From NCBI GenBank assembly GCA_947085205.1, contig CAMTVO010000042.1:1-20222 (forward strand): DNA of 20,222 bases, given 5' to 3'. The notes below the pieces were generated by a model. That model ran no database searches and was not told where the DNA came from. It saw nothing but the letters and a program-made list of their open reading frames with translations. This document shows positions 66-20,222 of this stretch, piece by piece (positions within the stretch are counted from its first letter, which is position 1; the number at the start of each line of letters is the position of its first letter). The translations under genes and the position numbers were made by a program. This DNA comes from an uncultured Nitrospiraceae bacterium (GTDB lineage Bacteria > Nitrospirota > Thermodesulfovibrionia > Thermodesulfovibrionales > Dissulfurispiraceae).

Positions 66-1673
66 TCACGAAACAGCGCAATCGTCAAGCAATTTAAGAA
101 AAGCATCGGGCAAAGAATCGATAATGTCGGATGCAATCAGAGAATGCTCTCCCCTTGCCTTTGCTGCAATGTCTCCTGCGAGGCCATGGAGATAAACACC
201 AAGCACAGATGAATCAATCGGGTTCAATCCCTGTCCTAATAAAGAAGCAATTATGCCTGTCAAAACATCTCCAGAGCCGGCAGTAGCCATTCCCGGGTTT
301 CCTGTGGTATTGATAAAAGCATTACCGTCCGGCTCTGCAACAATAGTTGGAACTCCTTTTAAGACGAGATATGTTCTCGTTTCCTTTGAAAACGATATTG
401 CAGTATTGATCCTGTCTTTTTCTACTGCCCTTTGCAATAATCTCGCCATCTCTCCCGCATGCGGCGTGAGAATAATCGGCGATTTTGCCTTTTTAAAAAG
501 ACCTATCGCCTCTTTAGACATAACCCCCCTTTGCCCCCCCTTAACAAGGGGGGGATGGGGGGGTGCTATCGCGTTTATTCCATCCGCATCTATCACCATC
601 GGAACTGTTGATTTCTGGATAAGCTCATTCATAACCTTTTCTGTGTTGTTTGAAACTCCGATTCCCGGGCCTATTGCAATAACATCAATCCTTTCTGAAG
701 CGAAATTGAGAATCACATCCGCTGCCTTCGGCGAAAGCGTTCCGTTTCCGTTATCCGGCAAAGGAAGCGTCATCTCTTCTGTAACCCTGTTCTGAAAAAT
801 ATCTATCAATGACTCTGGAACAGCCAAGGTCACAAGACCCGAGCCGCTTCTCAGACATGCCTTTGCAGCCATCAATGCAGCGCCTGTCTTGCCTTTAGAA
901 CCTGCCACTATTAAGATATGTCCATAATCGCCTTTGTGAGAATATCCCGGCCTTGGCGGTATTAAGCCCGATACGGTTTCCTTAGTCATCAAGCCGACCC
1001 TTAAATTGTCCTCTGCAAGAAGATTGTCAGGGAAGCCGATATCCTCGACAAAAAGTCTGCCTGTGTATTCTGCGCCGGGATAGAGAAAATGTCCCCTCTT
1101 CGGCAATCCGAATGTAACTGTGCAATCAGCCTTGACAGCCTTTCCTAAAATCTCTCCGGTATCGGAAGAAATGCCTGATGGAATGTCAACTGAAACCGTT
1201 AATGCGTGATGCGTAATGCGTGATGCGTTTACAAACTTAATAACATCAGCTATGCTCCCTTTTATATGTCTGCTGATGCCTGTACCAAATATTGCATCAA
1301 TGACAACAGCGCCGTGTATATCTCTTTCATTTACAGTCTTGCGGAATTCTATAGGAATGCCGTTTTTTTTTGCAATTTGATATTGAGCGTTGCAGTCTGG
1401 ACTCAGGGAATCCTTTTTTGCAAAAATCAAGACATTGACCTTAAATCCCCAGTTATGGAGATTCCTTGCAGCCGCAATGCCGTCGCCGCCGTTGTTTCCA
1501 CCTCCGCAGAGAACGAGAACCCTCTTGAGTTTAGAGTTAGGAGTTAGGAGTTTGGAGACCTTTAATGCAACGGCAAGACCCGCCCTTTCCATAAGGACTA
1601 ATGACGGAATGCCATATTCCTCAACGGTAATCCTGTCGATCTCACGCATTTCCTGAGATGTAACGACTTTCAT
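66..1673 (-). CDS. nnr: Bifunctional NAD(P)H-hydrate epimerase/dehydratase (YjeF; NnrE-NnrD fusion)
   Basis: Motifs LMERAG, GGGNNGGDG, DAIFGTG, VDIPSG, HKGDYG, IGPGIG, VIDADG, ILTPHAGE, GMATAGSGDVL. GGGGAG RBS upstream. Confidence 0.96.
   Translation of the reverse strand: MKVVTSQEMREIDRITVEEYGIPSLVLMERAGLAVALKVSKLLTPNSKLKRVLVLCGGGNNGGDGIAAARNLHNWGFKVNVLIFAKKDSLSPDCNAQYQIAKKNGIPIEFRKTVNERDIHGAVVIDAIFGTGISRHIKGSIADVIKFVNASRITHHALTVSVDIPSGISSDTGEILGKAVKADCTVTFGLPKRGHFLYPGAEYTGRLFVEDIGFPDNLLAEDNLRVGLMTKETVSGLIPPRPGYSHKGDYGHILIVAGSKGKTGAALMAAKACLRSGSGLVTLAVPESLIDIFQNRVTEEMTLPLPDNGNGTLSPKAADVILNFASERIDVIAIGPGIGVSNNTEKVMNELIQKSTVPMVIDADGINAIAPPHPPLVKGGQRGVMSKEAIGLFKKAKSPIILTPHAGEMARLLQRAVEKDRINTAISFSKETRTYLVLKGVPTIVAEPDGNAFINTTGNPGMATAGSGDVLTGIIASLLGQGLNPIDSSVLGVYLHGLAGDIAAKARGEHSLIASDIIDSLPDAFLKLLDDCAVS
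520..564. repeat. C/G-rich palindromic repeat in-frame in nnr (encodes PPHPPLVKGGQRGV)
   Basis: ATAAC-CCCCCT-TTG-CCCCCCCTT-AAC-AAGGGGGGG-ATG-GGGGGGT. Shares the ATAAC tag and CCCCTT-NNN-AAGGGG hairpin with the DUF559-flanking repeats. Confidence 0.85.
1200..1228. repeat. Heptamer tandem repeat (TRATGCG)x4 inside nnr
   Basis: taatgcg tgatgcg taatgcg tgatgcg; encodes ASRITHHAL. Confidence 0.9.
1527..1557. repeat. Heptamer tandem repeat (GAGTTAG-like)x4.4 inside nnr
   Basis: gagttta gagttag gagttag gagtttg gag; encodes SKLLTPNSKL. Confidence 0.88.
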
Positions 1674-1682
1674 GACTCCCCT

Positions 1683-1943
1683 TTATCTGTAAACTTCTCT
1701 GCGATGAGCAACTCGATAGACTTTAACAAGCCTGCTTTCATCATCTATCTCATAAAGTATCCTGTAATCTCCTGCTCTAATACGCCGGCGCGAACCGCCA
1801 CCGCTGAGTTTCTTGGAATTATGAGGTCTTGGTTCCTCATACAATCCGAGGATTATTTCTTCAAATCTTGATAACAGTTTGCCCGAAAAACCATCAAGGT
1901 CTTTTTGTGCCTGCGGCATTAACTTGACGAAATAAGAACTCAA
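1683..1943 (-). CDS. RelE/ParE-family type II toxin
   Basis: 86 aa basic protein with AQKDL...PRP...KKL...RIRAGDYRILYEIDD...HRREVY. Overlaps the upstream gene by 4 bp (ATGA). Confidence 0.9.
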   Translation of the reverse strand: MSSYFVKLMPQAQKDLDGFSGKLLSRFEEIILGLYEEPRPHNSKKLSGGGSRRRIRAGDYRILYEIDDESRLVKVYRVAHRREVYR

Positions 1944-2161
1944 GCAGTTTTTCCAGCCCTGCGGCGTTTTGAAAAATATTCTCTAGCAGAGATTGCTTTG
2001 CCCTTTGCCTTTTTTGCTTTTTCAATAAGTGCTATATCGATAAGGTCTTCTCTTAGTGCAGGGTCATTTATCACTTTCTCAAGAAAAGCCTCTTTTTCCT
2101 TAATCCTGAGCGTCTTGAATGCTGTGAAAAAAACTTCTGCTGTTGTCTGATTTGCTCTCAA
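1940..2161 (-). CDS. Probable antitoxin of the RelE-type toxin (73 aa, TTG start)
   Basis: Directly upstream of and overlapping the toxin. Strong RBS AGGAGGTG (2167-2174) 5 nt before TTG at 2161. EDLIDIALIEKA segment resembles toxin-binding helices of such antitoxins. Confidence 0.75.
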   Translation of the reverse strand: MRANQTTAEVFFTAFKTLRIKEKEAFLEKVINDPALREDLIDIALIEKAKKAKGKAISAREYFSKRRRAGKTA

Positions 2162-2226
2162 AATCTCACCTCCTGTTAAGCTTTGTCTTATTTTACCTGA
2201 ATCTTCCTTTAAAATCATTTGCTTTC

Positions 2227-2348
2227 ATAACTCCCCCTAACCCCCTCTTACCTTAAGAGGGGTATTTTCTTTCCTTCCCCCTTGAAGTAAGGGGGATTGA
2301 GGGGGTTACATCCTCCCCTTAAGGTAAGGGGAGGTTGGGAGGGGTTAT
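2227..2348. repeat. Palindromic repeat cluster (three hairpin units, ATAAC...GTTAT ends) at the 3' end of DUF559
   Basis: Hairpins CCCCTCTTA-CCT-TAAGAGGGG, TCCCCCTT-GAAGT-AAGGGGGA and CCTCCCCTT-AAGGT-AAGGGGAGG. Contains the DUF559 stop codon. Confidence 0.95.
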
Positions 2349-2696
2349 CCTCTCCGCTATTATCCTTAAAACATCATTAAGATTTTGCAACACCTCATTA
2401 TTCCAGAACCTCATGACATCGATTCCCTGTGTCTTCAGATACTCTGTGCGAACAGCATCATATTCCAATTGGTCATTTTCATTATGCCCGCCTCCATCCA
2501 ATTCTATGGCGAGTTTCAGCATGGGACAATAGAAGTCTAAAATATAAGGGCCTATACTGTATTGCCTGAAGAATTTCAGACCGTGAAATTGTTTGCTACG
2601 CACATGAGACCAGAAGGTTTTTTCAGCATCTGTTTGATTCCTCCTCAACTCCTGCCGCCGCTGTTTCAGTATCGATGCATTCCGCACTGCTTTCAT
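2319..2696 (-). CDS. DUF559 (Vsr-like / PD-(D/E)xK) endonuclease-domain protein
   Basis: Typical pattern LRRNQTDAE..FW...KFFRQY.IGPYILDFYC...LAIELDGGGH....YDAVRT..L...G..VMRFWNNEV. Confidence 0.93.
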   Translation of the reverse strand: MKAVRNASILKQRRQELRRNQTDAEKTFWSHVRSKQFHGLKFFRQYSIGPYILDFYCPMLKLAIELDGGGHNENDQLEYDAVRTEYLKTQGIDVMRFWNNEVLQNLNDVLRIIAERITPPNLPLP

Positions 2697-2818
2697 AACT
2701 CCCCCTAACCCCCTCTTACCTTAAGAGGGGGAACATAGGATGAAACGTTTTTTAAGAGGGACCCCTCAGCAAATCCTTTCTCCTCCCCTTGAGGTAAGGG
2801 GAGGTTGGGAGGGGTTAT
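2695..2818. repeat. Inverted doublet of the palindromic repeat upstream of DUF559
   Basis: 2688-2730 is identical to 2220-2262 (43 bp). 2781-2818 matches 2311-2348 at 37/38 positions. Provides GGGGGAG-TT-ATG for DUF559. Confidence 0.95.
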
Positions 2819-2891: not shown

Positions 2892-3983
2892 TTAAGCCCT
2901 CACTTTTGAAAAATTATCAAGAGACTCAAGAGTATTTAATGCATCTTCTTCATTCCAAAGCACTTTCGAGCCGTATGTTTCATTAAGCTTTAATGGTTTG
3001 CTACATATCCAATCATGTAAGCGCTTTTCGGTCAATAATACATCGCAATAAGGCAAAGCCCATGCAGCATGAGAAAAGTCAATAAGGTCATTCTCTTTGA
3101 AACGCTGACTCTTGTTATATCTCAGGAATGCGTGAAGATTTGCATTTATGTGAAAGAACGGCAACTCTTTATTGATCTTTTTTTGAGCAAAAGCATTATA
3201 AATTAGGTTTGACAATAACTCCACACTTTTTGATTCGCGCAAAGCTTCTGTGCTTACAGAACCTCCAGCATCATTTTGGTAAAGATAAATCCAGAGTTTT
3301 TCAATCTCAGGCTTTGCTATATCAAGGACCCCAGCTATTTCATGCATAAAAACTTCGTGAAATGTCTTCCAATCTTGATTCTCATCTTTCCCTTGATTAA
3401 GTTTAGCAATAAGATTGTCTCTATTCCATAAAGGGAAATCACTTTTTATAGTTTTTAACATTTCTACCAGAGTAAATTTTGAAAAGTGATCAAAAAAGCT
3501 GATTCTAATGTTATTCATCTGCTCGTCGGGAATTCCCTCTACTGCGGGATAGAACTCCCCCAACAAAAAGGCCACTTTTGTAAACACATACTTTATGGGA
3601 TTAAAAGGAGATTTTCCTTCTGCTCTCGCTTGACTGTTACGCACAAAACTAAGGAGTTCTTGTCCCACAATGTTAAGCGGTGATATGAAGCAAACCTGCT
3701 GGCTAAGTTCATCCATTACCTGTGCCATATTTAACCTTTTTTCTTTGTTGCGTATGTTCATAAGTTCTTGGAAAACATGAGGGCTTAAAGGACAAATCGC
3801 AACTTCTTTTTGAACAAGGTCTTTCAGCTTTTCATAGATTGCTGTTTGTACTAAAGATGCTTTTCCAAGTGATGCATCACGCATGAAAATCCAGTATTTC
3901 GTATCAAGGTAAATTTGGTACTTATTCAGTACCATATCTCCAATCTTAATTTTAAACTGCTCTGAAAAATCTTCTATCTTCAT
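2892..3983 (-). CDS. Hypothetical protein with PIN-like nuclease signature
   Basis: 363 aa, AT-rich. N-terminal IYLDT, PLSPHVFQEL and C-terminal ENDLIDFSHAAWALPYCDVLLTE resemble the acidic PIN active-site pattern split by a large insert. Confidence 0.6.
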   Translation of the reverse strand: MKIEDFSEQFKIKIGDMVLNKYQIYLDTKYWIFMRDASLGKASLVQTAIYEKLKDLVQKEVAICPLSPHVFQELMNIRNKEKRLNMAQVMDELSQQVCFISPLNIVGQELLSFVRNSQARAEGKSPFNPIKYVFTKVAFLLGEFYPAVEGIPDEQMNNIRISFFDHFSKFTLVEMLKTIKSDFPLWNRDNLIAKLNQGKDENQDWKTFHEVFMHEIAGVLDIAKPEIEKLWIYLYQNDAGGSVSTEALRESKSVELLSNLIYNAFAQKKINKELPFFHINANLHAFLRYNKSQRFKENDLIDFSHAAWALPYCDVLLTEKRLHDWICSKPLKLNETYGSKVLWNEEDALNTLESLDNFSKVRA

Positions 3984-4029
3984 TGTTTAATTTTCAAATT
4001 GTTGTCATTTTTAAATCGCATCCCATCTG

Positions 4030-4485
4030 TTACTTCTTCCAACCATTAATCCAGCCACTACCAATTCCTTTGTGAATTACCTTATGCTCCGGAGGTTTCG
4101 GCTCCTTTCCTAGTTTATAATATTTTCGAGTGCAATCTTTCGTCATGCACACCCACCCATTAGCATATTCTTTTAAATGGGACTTCTTACCGTTCGCCAT
4201 ACAAGATGGACAAAAATAGTTACCTGTTTTCTTTTCTTTGTAAATAGCCACATCGGGGATAAATACATATTTGGGTCTTTTTACAAATATGTATCCCGCT
4301 AATGCAATGCAGGCAATTATCAAAACAACGACTACCCAAAACCATGCCAGTGGATCAACGCTATTTATAAATTTTACAGGAACAAATTGGGCAGCAACAA
4401 GTATTAAAGTGCTAATAATGGTAAGGATTACCGTAGCAATATGTTCAGCTATTTTTTCAATCAATTTTTCCTTCAAAAGCTTCAT
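4030..4485 (-). CDS. Hypothetical membrane protein, two TM helices plus C-terminal Zn-ribbon
   Basis: Hydrophobic segments IATVILTIISTLILVAAQFV and LAWFWVVVVLIIACIALAGYIFV; CPSC...CMTKDC. AGGA RBS upstream. Confidence 0.7.
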   Translation of the reverse strand: MKLLKEKLIEKIAEHIATVILTIISTLILVAAQFVPVKFINSVDPLAWFWVVVVLIIACIALAGYIFVKRPKYVFIPDVAIYKEKKTGNYFCPSCMANGKKSHLKEYANGWVCMTKDCTRKYYKLGKEPKPPEHKVIHKGIGSGWINGWKK

Positions 4486-4524: not shown

Positions 4525-7500
4525 TCACTTCCCCTCAATTATTTTCCTCTCCTCTTCCGTTATCCCATAAAGCCCATAAACAATATTATCAATCTTCTCA
4601 TCTGTAACCGCAATCTCACGTTCTATTTTATCACGCTCTGCTGATAGTAGGAGGGAGTTTTTCTTTTTATGAAGCTCAAGCATTCGGTCAACGAGGGAGA
4701 CGAGTTTGTCGTGGATGGCTTTTTCAGAAGGGTTGGTGAAATTAATGGTGCGGATGGGAAGTTCTAAAAGCGGTGCTTTATCAATTTGCAATGCATTGCC
4801 CTGTTTCTTTCCTTTCTTGTCAAACCAGAAATGAGCAATCTTAGAATTTAAAATTGCAACAAGATATTTGAGATTTATGTCGCCTGGTTTTAATACGAAA
4901 AAGGTCTGAGATACATAACAGGGGAAATCAGTATAGGTAAAACAAGGTCTTTGTGTCTTTCTTAATGAAATTATTTTTTCGCCAAGGAAAAATCTTTCCT
5001 CCCTTGCACGGTGAAGTCCATACGGTTTAAAATCTGATGTAATAACAGACTTGAATTTATCCAGATGTGCCTTGATATGAGGATAATCCTTTATATATTT
5101 TATAGTTTCTGTAGTCGTATAGATAACCCAAAGTGAATTGGCAGGGTTTCCATAATATCTTGTCAATTCATTAGTTGTATAAAAAGGCTTTATTATCTTT
5201 TCCTCTTCTTTGGTAAGACGGAGCCTTTTCTTTTCCTCTGTTGAAATATTGAAGATGCCATCGCCTATCTTTACTGTTGGGTCACTTAATTTTGGAAGAT
5301 GCTTTGCTATGACAAAGTCCTGAGGTAGGACAATGCCTTGAGCAACATCATTCCCCTTTAAACGATATGTTCCATTCTTTTCAATCTTGTTTAGGATTGC
5401 TGCATCTTGTTGGTTAATAAATGTGAAGACTTCGCCTTTTGTTTTAGGTTTTAAAGTAGAAGGGAATGATACTGCAAAATTATCATCCTTCCCATGGAAA
5501 AGAAAATCAGCTATATCAGAAACTGGTATATCCTTTTTTAGAATTCGCCTATAGCGTATTTCTCCTTTGTGTGGTTTATCTGTCTTTTTTAGCAGATATA
5601 CCATTGTTTGAATGCCTGCCGTTTCAAAGACCCTGTAGTCTCCAAAATCAATGAACTCCAATAATTGTGTCTCTGACAAGATTTTCTTGCGGAGGATACT
5701 TGCCCCGCTGTTTGTAATCCAGTTATTTGGTGCAATAAAACTATGCAGCCCACCAATCTTGAGAAGGTCTAAGGAGAGGCATGCAAAGATATACCATAGA
5801 TCCATTTTACCCTGATAGTATTTAAAGAGTTTTGTTCCACGCAAATCATGAAACGGCTGTTTGCTTGTATATTCTTTCACATACGGCGGGTTGCCGATGA
5901 CGCAATCAAACCCTCCGCTCTCCATTATCTCTCCAAATCCAACTGTCTTTGAGTTCCAATCAAAAGGATTGATGCGGCTTTTATCTTCGTCAGACAGTCC
6001 AGCTACAGGGACAGTCCCTTCATAACTCCCCCTTCCCCCTCTTATCTTAAGAGGGGTTATTTTCTTTCCTTCCCCCTTGAAGTAAGGGGGATTGAGGGGG
6101 TAACATCCTCCCCTTAAGGTAAGGGGAGGTTGGGAGGGGTTATCCAATATGTCATAACCAATCAAACTATTGCCGCATTTGATGTTGTTGCTCAAAGGAG
6201 GAAGAAGGTGCTGCTTTTTAGGAAGCATCCCGCGCTCGCCTTCCAATGCTTTCAGATATAGGCTCATCATAGTTATCTCAACAGCCTGAGGGTCAATGTC
6301 AACACCGAAGATGTTATTTCTGAGAATCTTTGCCTTTTCATGAATCGGCAGCGACAACTCTTCAGGCGATATTTTCCAGTAAGGAAATAGATGCAGCGTC
6401 TGCGCCTCTTTTGGATGCTCACGATAGTATTTCAGGTGGTAGTCAATCAGGTATTGATATGCTCCGAGGAGGAATGAGCCTGAACCGCACGCAGGGTCAA
6501 GTATTTTTATTTTTTCTATCTGTTTCGGTGTCTTGCCCTCAATGAGTTTTCCGACTGTATTTTTGACAATGTAATCAACAATATATTTCGGCGTGTAATA
6601 AACCCCACCTGCCTTTCTTACCTCCGGCTTTTCCTCAACCTTAACCCTCTGCGGAGTTACCCTTATCGTGCTTCCAAGATAACGCTCATATATGCTTCCC
6701 AAGAGTTCAACGCCTATGGCGTCAAACCTGTATCTGCTCTTCGGGAAATAGAGGTTCTCTATAATCTCTGCAATGAGGTTTGAATCAACATCTGCTCTCT
6801 CACATGCGTGAGGTTTAAAAATATCGCCGTTTAAATCATCGTTCACTTCGTGGAAGAGGTCAAGGAGATGGCTCATTATGGATTTTCTCTTGCCTTCTTC
6901 TTTCCAGAGGGCCACAATCTCTATTAATTCCTTGTCAGGCCGTATCCTTCTGTCCTCTGCGATGCGGATAAAGATAATCCTGTCGAGGAGTTTCTGGACA
7001 ACATCATTCAATAACTTCACATCGAATTCAGGATTCCGTTTATGAATATCCTTTGCAAGCTCTGTCCTCCATTCTGTTAAATCTTCAAGGAATGATTTGT
7101 CAGGCGGAATCCTGAGCCTCTTGCTCTTTGTATCCTTGGGCAATAGGGCTTCCAAAGAACCCTGTTCAATGCGCTCTTTTGAAAGCTCCCAAAGTTTTTC
7201 TATGTTATTGAGGTAATCAGTATGTTTGAGGCCGAGGATTAATCCTTCGTCAGGGAATTTCGGATTTGGCTTTAAAGATGCGTCATAAAGCCTGAACTCT
7301 TCAAAGTCAGTGAGAATTACAAAATAGACCTCTTTTGTGGACCACACATAACTCTTTGCCTGAAGTATGTGGTTGATGTCATCAAGGGCAACAGACGGGG
7401 CTTTCGCTTCGATAAAAAATTTTATTGCTCCGTTTATTCTGAAGTTGTAATCGGGTCTTCCCGTAGTTTCCGGCGAAAGCTCGACGATTACATCTCTTTC

Positions 7501-7680
7501 ATGCGGCGGTTTCTGCGCCTTGTTTTCTATGTCCCAGCCGAGGGCTTTGAAAAAGGGGTTTATGAAGTCGATTCTTACCTGTGCCTCAAGATAGCCTTTT
7601 GACAGATAGTGGACTTTATCCTTCTCAAACTTTGAGATTAGCGCATTAAGTTTTTCTTTGAATATGTCAATATCGCCCAT
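4525..7680 (-). CDS. Type IIG restriction-modification enzyme (endonuclease + N6-adenine MTase + TRD; Eco57I/TaqI-C-like)
   Basis: N-terminal RPDY...FFIEAK nuclease motif, GVYYTP, motif I ILDPACGSGSFL, GVDID, motif IV VIGNPPY, C-terminal YLVAILNS and ID..VY.LYGIT.EE.KIIE. Confidence 0.93.
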   Translation of the reverse strand: MGDIDIFKEKLNALISKFEKDKVHYLSKGYLEAQVRIDFINPFFKALGWDIENKAQKPPHERDVIVELSPETTGRPDYNFRINGAIKFFIEAKAPSVALDDINHILQAKSYVWSTKEVYFVILTDFEEFRLYDASLKPNPKFPDEGLILGLKHTDYLNNIEKLWELSKERIEQGSLEALLPKDTKSKRLRIPPDKSFLEDLTEWRTELAKDIHKRNPEFDVKLLNDVVQKLLDRIIFIRIAEDRRIRPDKELIEIVALWKEEGKRKSIMSHLLDLFHEVNDDLNGDIFKPHACERADVDSNLIAEIIENLYFPKSRYRFDAIGVELLGSIYERYLGSTIRVTPQRVKVEEKPEVRKAGGVYYTPKYIVDYIVKNTVGKLIEGKTPKQIEKIKILDPACGSGSFLLGAYQYLIDYHLKYYREHPKEAQTLHLFPYWKISPEELSLPIHEKAKILRNNIFGVDIDPQAVEITMMSLYLKALEGERGMLPKKQHLLPPLSNNIKCGNSLIGYDILDNPSQPPLTLRGGCYPLNPPYFKGEGKKITPLKIRGGRGSYEGTVPVAGLSDEDKSRINPFDWNSKTVGFGEIMESGGFDCVIGNPPYVKEYTSKQPFHDLRGTKLFKYYQGKMDLWYIFACLSLDLLKIGGLHSFIAPNNWITNSGASILRKKILSETQLLEFIDFGDYRVFETAGIQTMVYLLKKTDKPHKGEIRYRRILKKDIPVSDIADFLFHGKDDNFAVSFPSTLKPKTKGEVFTFINQQDAAILNKIEKNGTYRLKGNDVAQGIVLPQDFVIAKHLPKLSDPTVKIGDGIFNISTEEKKRLRLTKEEEKIIKPFYTTNELTRYYGNPANSLWVIYTTTETIKYIKDYPHIKAHLDKFKSVITSDFKPYGLHRAREERFFLGEKIISLRKTQRPCFTYTDFPCYVSQTFFVLKPGDINLKYLVAILNSKIAHFWFDKKGKKQGNALQIDKAPLLELPIRTINFTNPSEKAIHDKLVSLVDRMLELHKKKNSLLLSAERDKIEREIAVTDEKIDNIVYGLYGITEEERKIIEGK
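6008..6145. repeat. 127-bp copy of the DUF559 3' repeat cluster plus GGGAC-A-GTCCC palindrome, in-frame in the R-M gene
   Basis: 6019-6145 aligns to 2224-2350 with four local differences. Encodes DNPSQPPLTLRGGCYPLNPPYFKGEGKKITPLKIRGGRGSYEGTVP. Confidence 0.96.
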
Positions 7681-9117: not shown

Positions 9118-10858
9118 AGGTCGATGGCCTTATTGCCTTCAAATTAAGCTGCAAATATCTTCCGCCGTCCCATTCATTTATTACCGGCAAAAAGGCAGCA
9201 TCAATCAATTCATTATCTGTAACGCTGCTTAAAAGGCCGCCGAAATCAAAACCAATGCTGTCTATCCTCCGGCCGCTCTGTCTTAAGCGCATCTTGAGAT
9301 GGTTCTTGCCGACAATCCTCGGCTGCACTACCTCGAGCCCTTTTGCTCCGAACAAAGGCTCTTCATTGCAGCAGCCGAAAGGCTCGAGCCCTGAGATTTC
9401 ATCTATTAGTCCAACGCTTATATCAGACATAGTAACGGCAGCATCAATATTCAAAACAGGAATAAAGTCATCATCCGAGAGTGTATTCATTACCACATCA
9501 GAAATCATCGCCCTGAATTTTTCTATATCCACGGATGAAAGAGCAAGCCCCGCTGCCTGTTTATGTCCTCCAAACCTTTTAAGAATGTCCTTGCATTGCG
9601 TAAGACCGTAATGAATATCAAACTGCGGTATGCTCCGTCCAGAGCCTTTGGCCATACCGTTTTCTATTGAGAGGATAAATGCAGGGCGGCAGTATTTTTC
9701 AGCAATCCTCGATGCAACAATGCCGACTACGCCGTGATGCCAGCCTTCCGATGCAATGACAATAGCGCCATCAAGCGTGCAGCGTGCAGCGTCAAGCGTA
9801 TTGAGCATCTCTAAAGCCTCTTGATAAACAGACCCCTCTATCTCTTGCCTTCTTTGATTTAAATCATTCAGCCATTTCGCAAGCTCCCCGGCCTCTGCTT
9901 CGGATTTCGTAGTCAAAAGCCTCACGACATCGGTTGCATCTGCCATCCTTCCTGCAGCATTAATCCTCGGTATAATGGAGTAATACAAAAAAGATGTCTT
10001 GAAAAAATCAGACCTTATTCCCGACACATCCTTCAGTGCCCTGATACCGGGACGCTGTCCCGACTGGACTAGTTTTATGCCCTCTTTGAGGATAATCCTG
10101 TTGTCTCCAATCACAGGAACTACATCGGCAGCGGTCCCGATTGCAGCGAGGTCAAAGAGCTCGTATATATCGTCAATATTGCTATCAAATAAGCCTTGAA
10201 TGAGTTTGAATGCCACGCCGGCTCCGGAAAGGATGGATTGGAGTGTTGGAGTATTGGAGTGTTGTATTTTAGGATTTATTATCGCCAGAGCATAAGGAAG
10301 TAAAAATTCATTGCTAACTCCTAACTCCTGACTCCTGACTCCTGACTGCCTTGTCGGTTCGTGATGGTCTGTAATGATTACATCTATACCTGCCGAATTA
10401 GCAATTGAAACAGCCTCAAATGATGTAATGCCGCAGTCAACAGTGATGATTAGCTTTGCGCCAACCGTCTTCGCCTTTTCTACTCCTTCACTGCCGAATC
10501 CGTAGCCGTGGGCAATCCTGTTGGGGATAAAATAGTGAACATCTATGCCGATTTTCTTGAGACCCTCGACCATTATTGCGGTCGCAGTAATCCCGTCTGC
10601 ATCATAATCTCCATGGACAAAGACCCTCTCTCCTAATCTTTTAGCCTCCTTGATTCTATTTATTGCGATTTTGATATGAGGCAGTTCAAATGGGTCGGAG
10701 AGTTTATTTACGGCAGGACTAAGAAAAGATTCTATTTGCTCCGACGTCTTTATCCCCCTGTTTATCAATACCTGCGCAAACACAGGGGATATAGAAGCCG
10801 CTTTAGAAAGATATTCTACATATTCAGGATTAGTTTTATTTACCACCCATTTTTTCAC
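9116..10858 (-). CDS. recJ: Single-stranded-DNA-specific exonuclease RecJ
   Basis: HGDYDADG, ITVDCG, TDHH, GTAADVV, PRINAAGR, GSGRS, FGGHKQAAG, LEPFG. GTG start. Confidence 0.97.
   Translation of the reverse strand: MKKWVVNKTNPEYVEYLSKAASISPVFAQVLINRGIKTSEQIESFLSPAVNKLSDPFELPHIKIAINRIKEAKRLGERVFVHGDYDADGITATAIMVEGLKKIGIDVHYFIPNRIAHGYGFGSEGVEKAKTVGAKLIITVDCGITSFEAVSIANSAGIDVIITDHHEPTRQSGVRSQELGVSNEFLLPYALAIINPKIQHSNTPTLQSILSGAGVAFKLIQGLFDSNIDDIYELFDLAAIGTAADVVPVIGDNRIILKEGIKLVQSGQRPGIRALKDVSGIRSDFFKTSFLYYSIIPRINAAGRMADATDVVRLLTTKSEAEAGELAKWLNDLNQRRQEIEGSVYQEALEMLNTLDAARCTLDGAIVIASEGWHHGVVGIVASRIAEKYCRPAFILSIENGMAKGSGRSIPQFDIHYGLTQCKDILKRFGGHKQAAGLALSSVDIEKFRAMISDVVMNTLSDDDFIPVLNIDAAVTMSDISVGLIDEISGLEPFGCCNEEPLFGAKGLEVVQPRIVGKNHLKMRLRQSGRRIDSIGFDFGGLLSSVTDNELIDAAFLPVINEWDGGRYLQLNLKAIRPST
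9771..9799. repeat. Heptamer tandem repeat x4 inside recJ
   Basis: tcaagcg tgcagcg tgcagcg tcaagcg; encodes TLDAARCTLD. Confidence 0.85.
10237..10264. repeat. Octamer tandem repeat (RTTGGAGT)x3.5 inside recJ
   Basis: attggagt gttggagt attggagt gttg; encodes QHSNTPTLQ. Confidence 0.85.
10314..10348. repeat. Heptamer tandem repeat (CTRACTC)x5 inside recJ
   Basis: ctaactc ctaactc ctgactc ctgactc ctgactg; encodes QSGVRSQELGVS just after the DHH motif. Confidence 0.92.
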
Positions 10859-15016: not shown

Positions 15017-15841
15017 TTAAAAATAGGAGAGATCCTTCAGGTAATTTCTGAACAGTTCCAGCCCCTTTTTATGCTCGCCTGTAAAATCATAGTCAATCAT
15101 GTTCCAGTAAGAAATAATTTCTTTTTCTGACATAAACCCCTTCATCGGCGAATGTTTTGCGATTTCTGGAAGACTTTTAAGAGCAATCTCCTTTGCCCTG
15201 TCTAAATCCTGAATAAATTTATCTAAAAGTTCCCCTTGACCCCTGACCCCTGACCCTTGACCCTTGAAAAGTTCCCTTCTCGCAATCCAGAGTGCAAACA
15301 CAAAAGGCAGATTTGTGTTTTGATGCCATAGATCACCCAAATCATAAATTAATTCATTCTGACTGCTAACTGCCGACTGTTGACTTCTGTGTTTTAGAGC
15401 ATCGTCTCCTATCAAAAGAAATGCTTCGCCTTCTGAATTCTCCGGATCCTGTAAAATCTGTAATTTGCACTGGATCCAATAAAATTTTCTAAGAATAATA
15501 TCAAGCAGGGCAACAGATGTTTCTGACTGAAAAGATACATATATAGTGCCTCCATTCAATTCCTCAATCGGTATTTTGCTGAAAAGTAAGATACTGCCCA
15601 CAGGGCCTTTGGAGCTTATGGAGTGTCCATCAATTATTTGGTATAAAGATGGATTTTTGAGATACTCAATAGACGAAGAAGGGCTTATATCCAACTCGCC
15701 GTCTCTGAGCATTTTATTGAGCATGGAAGGCACGCCTTCTACAAACTCGTAAGGCGAGCAATCGCATTCCCTTTCAAGCATATAGAATATCGGGAAAAGA
15801 TTTGCATAAGGAATCTTACCTATTCTTAATTTTATATTCAT
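15017..15841 (-). CDS. mqnA: Chorismate dehydratase (futalosine menaquinone pathway)
   Basis: RIG.I.Y.N..P, GVPS.LN, SSIEY, GPVGSILLFS, SETS..L, LLIGDDAL, DLG.LW...T.LPFVFALW. Confidence 0.9.
   Translation of the reverse strand: MNIKLRIGKIPYANLFPIFYMLERECDCSPYEFVEGVPSMLNKMLRDGELDISPSSSIEYLKNPSLYQIIDGHSISSKGPVGSILLFSKIPIEELNGGTIYVSFQSETSVALLDIILRKFYWIQCKLQILQDPENSEGEAFLLIGDDALKHRSQQSAVSSQNELIYDLGDLWHQNTNLPFVFALWIARRELFKGQGSGVRGQGELLDKFIQDLDRAKEIALKSLPEIAKHSPMKGFMSEKEIISYWNMIDYDFTGEHKKGLELFRNYLKDLSYF
15233..15267. repeat. Heptamer tandem repeat (CCCYTGA)x5 inside mqnA
   Basis: cccttga cccctga cccctga cccttga cccttga; encodes KGQGSGVRGQG. Confidence 0.92.
15359..15386. repeat. Heptamer tandem repeat (CTGACTG-like)x4 inside mqnA
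   Basis: ctgactg ctaactg ccgactg ttgactt; encodes SQQSAVSSQ. Confidence 0.8.
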
Positions 15842-19083: not shown

Positions 19084-20222
19084 TGCATACCTTTACAGTC
19101 CAGGCTATTGAAAAACTATTCAGGGGCAAATTCTCCGCAGCCGCCGATATACAACTCCTGTGGAAAGGGGACGAATCGTTCAGAACCATCTTCGATGCGG
19201 TAAGAAACGCAAAAGATTTTATATGCCTCGAATTCTATATCTTCAGAAATGACGAGACAGGTAATGAATTGGCAGAACTCTTAAAACAAAAAAGCAAAGA
19301 AGGAGTTAAGGTATACCTCCTTTATGACCACTTTGGCTCGTTCGGAACGCCGAGTGGCTTCTGGAAGGACATGAGGAATGCCGGAATAAAAATAAGGGCA
19401 TCCCGGCCGTTTAAGTGGACTTCTCCTTTTAATTATGTGCACAGAGACCACAGGAAGCTCATCGTTATTGACTTCAAGAAGGCATTCACCGGAGGATTAA
19501 ATATAGCAAACGAATACAGCGGTTTTCATAAAAAGATATATCCCCCTATAATTCCCCCCTTGGTAAAGGGGAATACAGGGGGGTGGCGGGATACGGGAAT
19601 AATGCTTGAAGGCCCTATAGTGAATGAACTTTTCGAGACTTTTAAAAAATGGTGGTACATATGGGGCGGAGAACCCATAACAATTTCAAATTTCAAATTT
19701 CAAATTTCAAATTTCAAGGAAGGTATCCCTGCAATTCCGATATTCGTCAGCTCTGCGAGAGGCAGAAGGAGAATGAGAAGGCTTCTCTATTACAGCATAA
19801 ACCACTCCCGGAAAAGCATTACATTAACAACCGCCTATTTTACCCCGTCTAGAAGGATGGTGGAGACATTGGAAAATGCAGTAAACCGCGGAGTAAGGGT
19901 AAGACTTCTCGTTCCGGGCATCAGTGATGTGCCGGCAGCATCATATGCAGGAAGGGCTTTCTTTGAAAGGCTCTTAAAGGCAGGCGTTGAGATATACACA
20001 TATACCGGAGAAATACTCCATGCAAAGACATACATCTTCGATGACTGCTGGAGCGTTATAGGCTCAACAAATCTCGATTTCCAGTCTTTAAGATACAACG
20101 ACGAGGGGAATGTCGGAATACTCAATGCCGACTTTGCATCAAATATGAACGCTATCTTTGAGGAAGACCTGAAAAATTCAACCGGAATAACGCTTGACGA
20201 ATGGCTTAAAAGGCCATTCAGA
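19083..20222 (+). CDS. Cardiolipin synthase-like phospholipase D (ClsB-type, no N-terminal TM), truncated by window end
   Basis: Hand translation from ATG 19083 (overlaps upstream TAA) is open for 380 codons, with two HKD motifs (HRKLIVID...GGLN, HAKTYIFD...GSTN), WRDT and TAYF.P. Absent from the ORF track because no stop falls in the window. Confidence 0.92.
   Translation, partial: MHTFTVQAIEKLFRGKFSAAADIQLLWKGDESFRTIFDAVRNAKDFICLEFYIFRNDETGNELAELLKQKSKEGVKVYLLYDHFGSFGTPSGFWKDMRNAGIKIRASRPFKWTSPFNYVHRDHRKLIVIDFKKAFTGGLNIANEYSGFHKKIYPPIIPPLVKGNTGGWRDTGIMLEGPIVNELFETFKKWWYIWGGEPITISNFKFQISNFKEGIPAIPIFVSSARGRRRMRRLLYYSINHSRKSITLTTAYFTPSRRMVETLENAVNRGVRVRLLVPGISDVPAASYAGRAFFERLLKAGVEIYTYTGEILHAKTYIFDDCWSVIGSTNLDFQSLRYNDEGNVGILNADFASNMNAIFEEDLKNSTGITLDEWLKRPFR
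19541..19583. repeat. C/G-rich palindromic repeat in-frame in the PLD gene (encodes PPIIPPLVKGNTGG)
   Basis: CCCCCTATAATTCCCCCCTT-GGT-AAAGGGGAATACAGGGGGG; same architecture as 520-564. Confidence 0.8.
19683..19717. repeat. Perfect heptamer tandem repeat (ATTTCAA)x5 inside the PLD gene
   Basis: Five exact copies; encodes ISNFKFQISNFK in the linker between the two PLD halves. Confidence 0.95.

Follow-up and report, generated by a model that had tools for sequence, protein, structure and literature searches.

Palindromic repeats that are read in frame inside many unrelated host genes have been described as Rickettsia palindromic elements (RPEs) and intragenic REPs, with clusters of 43-82 aa and double insertions also reported in the sections of these sources used here (PMC10969869; PMC3733652). 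In the same sections, insertion at the same site is reported for Xanthomonas recB only (PMC3733652, section 15); the intragenic REPs have their list in Additional file 3 of that paper, and R-M genes may be among them. A second kind of repeat, the triplex motif TM_ECO, is given as always intergenic in E. coli MG1655 in the portion of PMC4666352 drawn upon. In restriction-modification (R-M) genes, movement of specificity domains through recombination at repeats is known, as stated in the excerpted text of PMC3077401.

The window (the whole 20,222-nt stretch of DNA that was analysed) carries on its minus strand a type IIG R-M gene (4525..7680) whose single open frame of 1051 aa comprises REase, MTase and specificity half. 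The product was identified as PADLOC REase_MTase_IIG (E 7e-168), and as in type IIG enzymes the REase, MTase and recognition domain lie in one chain with their motifs intact, including methylase motif I (D395-G401) and NPPY (597-600). The full-length structural model was poor (pTM 0.46, low confidence near motif I), with CamA and M.BseCI as its top structural matches; because the fold was weak around motif I, a domain model was used instead (pTM 0.82, confident methylase core). Fold and motif order match those of gamma-class adenine methyltransferases (CamA 7LNI, M.BseCI, BpuSI, M.TaqI), whereas the interval between two CamA-aligned blocks is ~28 aa in CamA and ~113 aa here. In the domain model pLDDT fell below 50 in the insert and the cut N-end only, and the insert was modelled as low-confidence coil flanked by confidently folded segments; the loop at this site is predicted to be flexible, to lie on the surface and to be tolerant. 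Purifying selection was evident on both halves, with dN/dS about 0.08 before the loop (0.044/0.528, vs L004) and 0.06 after it (0.065/1.088, vs L002), ratios that integrate over long lineages and say nothing on present-day activity. On the account favoured below, the enzyme would be active and the loop peptide neutral.

Between NSLIGYDI and SRINPFDW this gene contains a three-hairpin repeat cluster (6019..6145, minus strand) that is read in frame as 42 codons (D513-E554). A 13-nt palindrome unrelated to the cluster (6007..6019, no strand assigned; 7 copies in the genome) is read as GTVP and is common to loop alleles P0010, P0011, L002 and L004, so that the ~46 repeat-derived residues counted by the first-pass annotation correspond to the 42 codons of the cluster plus GTVP. 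Folding of the cluster was better than that of shuffles (z -3.0 to -3.3); hairpins were present in each of the clusters, with z from -3.0 to -3.9 over the four strands folded. In this 89.7%-complete genome the only close look-alikes are 2224-2350 and the arms of 2688-2818. The former, intergenic cluster A (2224..2350, minus strand), is a 96% identical direct repeat situated 3795 bp from the coding cluster, at the 3' flank of a DUF559 cassette.

Global alignment of the two 127-nt segments recovered the four differences originally described: relative to the intergenic copy, the coding copy shows AA>T at ~6034, which is net -1, then C>T at 6045, one additional T at 6057-6058 (+1) and lastly T>A at 6102. 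When translated in the R-M frame the intergenic copy yields ...KKIPLLR*, while the coding copy reads through. Hybrids carrying a single change also stop, at codon index 37 with the +1 only and at 33 with the arm change only, whereas the coding copy is stop-free; the sequence observation is thereby confirmed, and either indel alone leaves a stop. Hairpin units 1 and 2 plus the spacer (6060..6145, minus strand) have one substitution against the local intergenic copy. The +1 base (6057..6058, minus strand) lies at the border of spacer and third arm, and the third arm (6022..6056, minus strand) is the 1-nt-linker allele, formed by the -1 together with C>T.

Reading of such repeats in frame is not peculiar to this gene. 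For the wider hairpin family, 25 of 37 genome sites fell inside long frames, compared with 939 of 2000 random windows, indicating that an in-frame copy is ordinary in this genome; among the other in-frame sites, insertion status was confirmed against homologues for NnrDE only. A search of Rfam returned two weak matches only, far below cut-off. Hairpins of the wider family are in frame at window positions 520-563 (NnrDE) and 19550-19584 (a second gene). Tandem repeats of 7-8 nt are likewise in frame in NnrDE, RecJ and a menaquinone gene (1202-1228, 1534-1557, 9771-9799, 10238-10264, 10317-10347, 15233-15267 and 15359-15389).

Alignment with homologues confirmed the proposed insertion at this loop, the query having 65 aa where empty homologues have 20-21 aa. 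Among the best 120 of ~8000 homologues, 114 could be parsed (two of the remaining six were filled and four short), and the loop was longer than 23 aa in 92 of these, query included. The other 22 of 114, at 23 aa or less, supply the insert-free homologues by which an in-frame insertion of the RPE kind is recognized. All 92 long loops fall in eight peptide classes and 21 stack at least two of them, where the classes are our own regex peptide patterns and overlap; the DNA behind the loop peptides was palindromic, by eye, in the loci inspected. When 99 full-length proteins were scored with strict repeat motifs, 57 had a hit in this loop and 13 in the loop that follows; 11 had one in the C-half (in 7 of them a native motif), and for the 508-residue N-half the count was 0. 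In a control, 3 of 30 family loci had the repeat peptide of the window's NnrDE gene. Of 150 representatives taken at 50% identity, 137 were parsed (13 were not) and 114 of the 137 had a short interval, indicating that the hotspot is mostly limited to the close clade. A literature search, with most subscription papers and all supplements outside its scope, yielded no report of this loop hotspot or of a link between DUF559 and repeats.

A second site was seen between FDW and GGFD (window 5900-5950), where 28 of 114 close homologues have a ~11-aa hairpin peptide and Acidobacteria loci have longer inserts. There, the distant R-M homologue P0331 contains a Y1 (IS200-like) transposase domain in frame, bounded by repeated peptides (residues 421-524).

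To assess the state of the frame, 46 distinct genomic alleles of the loop were classified: 12 were empty and 2 lacked the right flank, while of the 32 filled ones 30 were in frame and 2 broken. The 30 in-frame alleles among 32 filled ones depart from a one-third expectation (p 1e-12; since kin are not independent, this and our other p-values overstate), supporting the earlier proposal that selection keeps the enzyme readable. Because most close relatives carry some repeat in the loop, the open frame is likely to reflect selection among common repeat variants and not two rare rescue mutations.

The third arm bears directly on this point. Among 317 genomes of the order, 76 contained its pattern, against 0 for the control, and the exact coding arm was found in at least 13 places in 5 other genomes and in 18 of 120 metagenome loci. 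Among 134 non-redundant arms with enough flank, a set which includes loci found via the R-M protein, those situated inside long open frames were 13 of 48 with a 1-nt linker, 3 of 80 with a 2-nt linker (for which the metagenome arm pattern, ending in TGA, closed one frame) and 4 of 6 with a 3-nt linker. The 1-nt and 2-nt classes differ in their presence in long frames (p 2e-4), and 35 of the 48 1-nt-linker arms are outside long frames. These counts indicate that the -1 is a standing allele of the repeat family, present outside genes too and favoured inside them. Moreover, the arm peptide is identical in this loop of six other homologues, and three-unit loop forms with the same left junction as the query occur in P0005, P0007 and L031; P0005-P0009 are at peptide level only, so that the older three-unit allele is seen as peptide, plus L031. 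At a different site, within the specificity half, the arm peptide is also in frame in the R-M gene of a relative (L112:8400-8460, genome G021), downstream of which lies a 93% identical DUF559 cassette.

In contrast to the arm, the +1 spacer was found at no other locus among 35 clusters with spacers of 16-41 nt. It is therefore private to the query locus, which leaves room for one compensating base. Across units 1 and 2 and the spacer, the coding copy equals the local intergenic copy at 6 of 6 positions where the latter differs from that of G021, whereas in the third arm the coding copy departs from the local copy (both from alignment with G021, by eye). Since units 1 and 2 track the local copy and the third arm does not, the pattern points to a conversion tract, likely covering 6060..6145, laid onto an older in-frame allele and ending at the +1. 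The first-pass annotation had read the two indels as compensating, frame-saving changes. For the -1 with its C>T this reading is weakened, as the pair forms a widespread allele that is non-coding as well and whose peptide recurs in the six homologues; for the +1, seen nowhere else, it may. The opposing suggestion, that the coding variants are simply the genome-wide consensus, comes close: the arm is a family-wide allele, though not this genome's consensus.

The account we favour, and hold to be reasonably probable, is that a cluster of the cassette-flank type sits in frame in a tolerant loop, with repeats gained or swapped by recombination and frame-open versions selected. Of its parts, the gain and swapping of repeats by the loop via recombination is likely, as is the retention by selection of only frame-open versions. 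In outline, a three-unit loop allele would predate this genome, given the left junction shared by P0005, P0007 and L031. Units 1 and 2 with the spacer would then have been refreshed through gene conversion, with cluster A at a distance of 3.8 kb as the donor, by a tract that ended before the third arm, which would retain the common frame-compatible allele. The +1 may mark the tract boundary or be a single compensating base, and loop alleles would have spread via homologous recombination in the conserved flanks.

The loop is situated at the border between the conserved N-half and a specificity half that is exchanged freely: where the N-half is 89-94% identical to that of the query, the C-half may be 8-27% identical. 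Near-identical N-halves can also have different loops (P0059/P0071, 100%; P0044/P0085, 97%). On the N-half tree, built by a quick search that left 38 of the 99 inner branches unresolved, and for recombining genes, which fit trees poorly, C-half classes were distributed at random (35 changes, shuffled 35). Loop classes took 55 changes on the same tree (shuffled mean 68, minimum 60); they somewhat track it, indicating that inheritance accounts for part of their distribution.

A far-reaching interpretation would make the loop a dedicated repeat trap and recombination hinge, targeted at this border of the two halves by several unrelated nuclease-linked repeat families and sometimes by whole nuclease or transposase cassettes, thereby driving specificity swaps or deletion shut-off; we consider this doubtful. 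Also unlikely is that the loop repeats are kept as useful, either as crossover points at which specificity halves are swapped or as a switch whereby deletion takes out the gene's 3' half along with the cassette. The border position and the domain movement known in other R-M genes speak for such a use, as does L031, in which a truncated R-M gene ends at the loop cluster and is followed by DNA like that after cluster A and then by a toxin-antitoxin pair. This layout is the product expected of recombination between the loop cluster and a cassette-flank cluster, and no DUF559 match was found in genome G134 (98% complete), a carrier of the L031-type allele. However, C-halves are swapped in empty alleles too and loop classes are mixed across C-half classes; unrelated repeats cannot pair together, the conserved flanks are enough for exchange, and deletion is a one-way step. 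L130 is another deletion allele, its deletion running from a repeat in the first loop to one in the second. Separately, eight loci (L007, L008, L012, L013, L017, L021, L030 and L031) have 1-4 extra R-M 3' ends downstream, among cargo and toxin-antitoxin genes, resembling an array grown through recombination at the conserved 3' end.

The path proposed originally, in which a complete copy of cluster A entered and disrupted the gene and two later indels restored the frame, is distinctly unlikely. It would explain the 96% identity of the coding cluster to the local copy, the stops in both single-change states and the restriction of the +1 to this locus, and broken loop alleles do exist in relatives (L059, L128 and L131). 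Nevertheless, it needs two steps with dead intermediates, and the -1 plus C>T together match the common arm allele, with the arm peptide and three-unit forms present in other homologues.

Between the R-M gene and the DUF559 cassette lie two cargo ORFs of 363 and 151 aa (2892..4485, minus strand) with no Pfam or PADLOC match. The DUF559 (Vsr-like) endonuclease gene (2319..2696, minus strand) is the genome's only match, and its start and stop codons are within the flanking clusters. Cluster B, the 5' flank (2688/2692..2818, minus strand), shares its outer arms with cluster A in direct orientation and has a different middle. After the cassette come a ParE-family gene and its upstream partner ORF (1683..2218, minus strand); it is to DNA like that immediately past cluster A that the truncated R-M gene of L031 is joined. 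In HrpA, MetH, YgiQ, type I subunits and other type IIG families, relatives of the local DUF559 are in frame with repeat peptides at their borders. Against the favoured account, DUF559 was inside the short flanks of 4 of 120 arm loci only. DUF559 is a candidate mobiliser of the repeats.

Several features of the cassettes were noted in passing. At the end of the repeat (window 2688-2705 and 2220-2237) are a purine-rich stretch and an ATG, which in the first copy forms the DUF559 start codon; in the other, the repeat end lies directly before the next gene's start. In P0121-P0131, P0177, P0204 and P0233, prepilin-type proteins are preceded by a DUF559 that a repeat peptide links to them, fusions that may be read-through gene calls. 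A hairpin-bounded DUF559 cassette occupies L030:2870-3410, out of frame in the C-half of a member of the same R-M family, with its flank near-duplicated over ~12 nt.

It had also been suggested that the site may be the empty allele of an in-frame DUF559 insertion; the solo cluster would then be the footprint of a cassette lost from the loop by flank-flank recombination. The shared outer arms in direct orientation would permit this, the local DUF559 gene falls in the R-M register, and cassettes do enter such genes, as seen with the out-of-frame copy in L030, the in-frame transposase in the next loop of P0331 and the in-frame DUF559 of many other hosts. Yet four stops interrupt the local cassette when it is read in the R-M register, and DUF559 was found in this loop in 0 of 120 best homologues, 0 of 150 representatives at 50% identity (13 unparsed) and 0 of 46 genomic alleles, making the suggestion highly improbable.

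Barely credible is an artefact in which the assembler placed a collapsed repeat in the gene: this is a metagenome assembly with two 96% identical copies 3.8 kb apart and no listed contig bridging the whole insert site, but contigs from independent assembly show no difference from the coding copy or from its junction to the 5' half, and homologues from other data sets have a similar insert with an identical junction. Specifically, Logan contigs from runs X1 and X2 were identical over 6027-6145 and 6115/6116-6196/6218, where both runs belong to one study, possibly the source, the matching sequences are assembled contigs and not reads, and a contig end falls 7 nt from the -1 site, which these contigs do not bridge. 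One RNA run likewise had no contig over the full insert. Misassembly of the coding cluster, the concern raised at the outset, is therefore unlikely. A joint 2348>6019 in run X3 was not accepted as a deletion, because of extra letters and a side of only 28 nt, and runs with small shares (X7-X20) were left out as evidence for habitat or expression.

With the two-indel rescue mostly explained away, the main interest of the locus is a hotspot used by multiple repeat families. It provides a natural library of one protein loop, with ~90 filled and ~20 empty alleles, several palindrome families, and broken and deleted forms, through which palindrome entry into coding sequence becomes testable, as does the question of whether insertion itself or subsequent filtering sets the frame. 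The DUF559 cassette and the copy 3.8 kb away form a cis pair with which to test whether DUF559 moves repeats, and the loop is, within a type IIG enzyme, a site permissive for insertion.

Compared with RPEs and intragenic REPs, the cluster is alike in being palindromic, with stable hairpins, read in frame and part of a dispersed family that is largely inside genes. By analogy, it would work like Rickettsia palindromic elements, and the likeness first drawn to them is upheld as one of behaviour. It differs in that the insertions here concern one loop of one enzyme family, with eight peptide classes in ~80% of close homologues. Furthermore, the partner gene is DUF559, which sets it apart from REP families, and terminal GTAG or CGTC tags were absent from the three clusters. 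As in MITE-type terminal inverted repeats, the ends agree at 7 of 8 first bases and the arms are long and imperfect; no target-site duplication was seen, and against L004 the junctions resemble a ~13-nt replacement (by eye; the true ancestor may differ).

The BoxC, PIT and TM_ECO triplex motifs, as presented in the portion of PMC4666352 drawn upon, resemble the clusters in having a hairpin with a third C-/G-rich tract, paired copies and a link to local rearrangement, the three-tract layout of the clusters being judged by eye. No match to the TM_ECO consensus was found in them within 5 substitutions, and unlike TM_ECO, which is intergenic, 25 of the 37 sites here are inside long frames. Finally, as with the domain movement covered in the excerpt of PMC3077401, the recognition part is exchanged between alleles and deletion alleles occur at repeats. 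There, however, the repeats are native segments of the S subunit, whereas here they are palindromes of foreign origin, located in a methylase loop, and the enzyme is a single chain.
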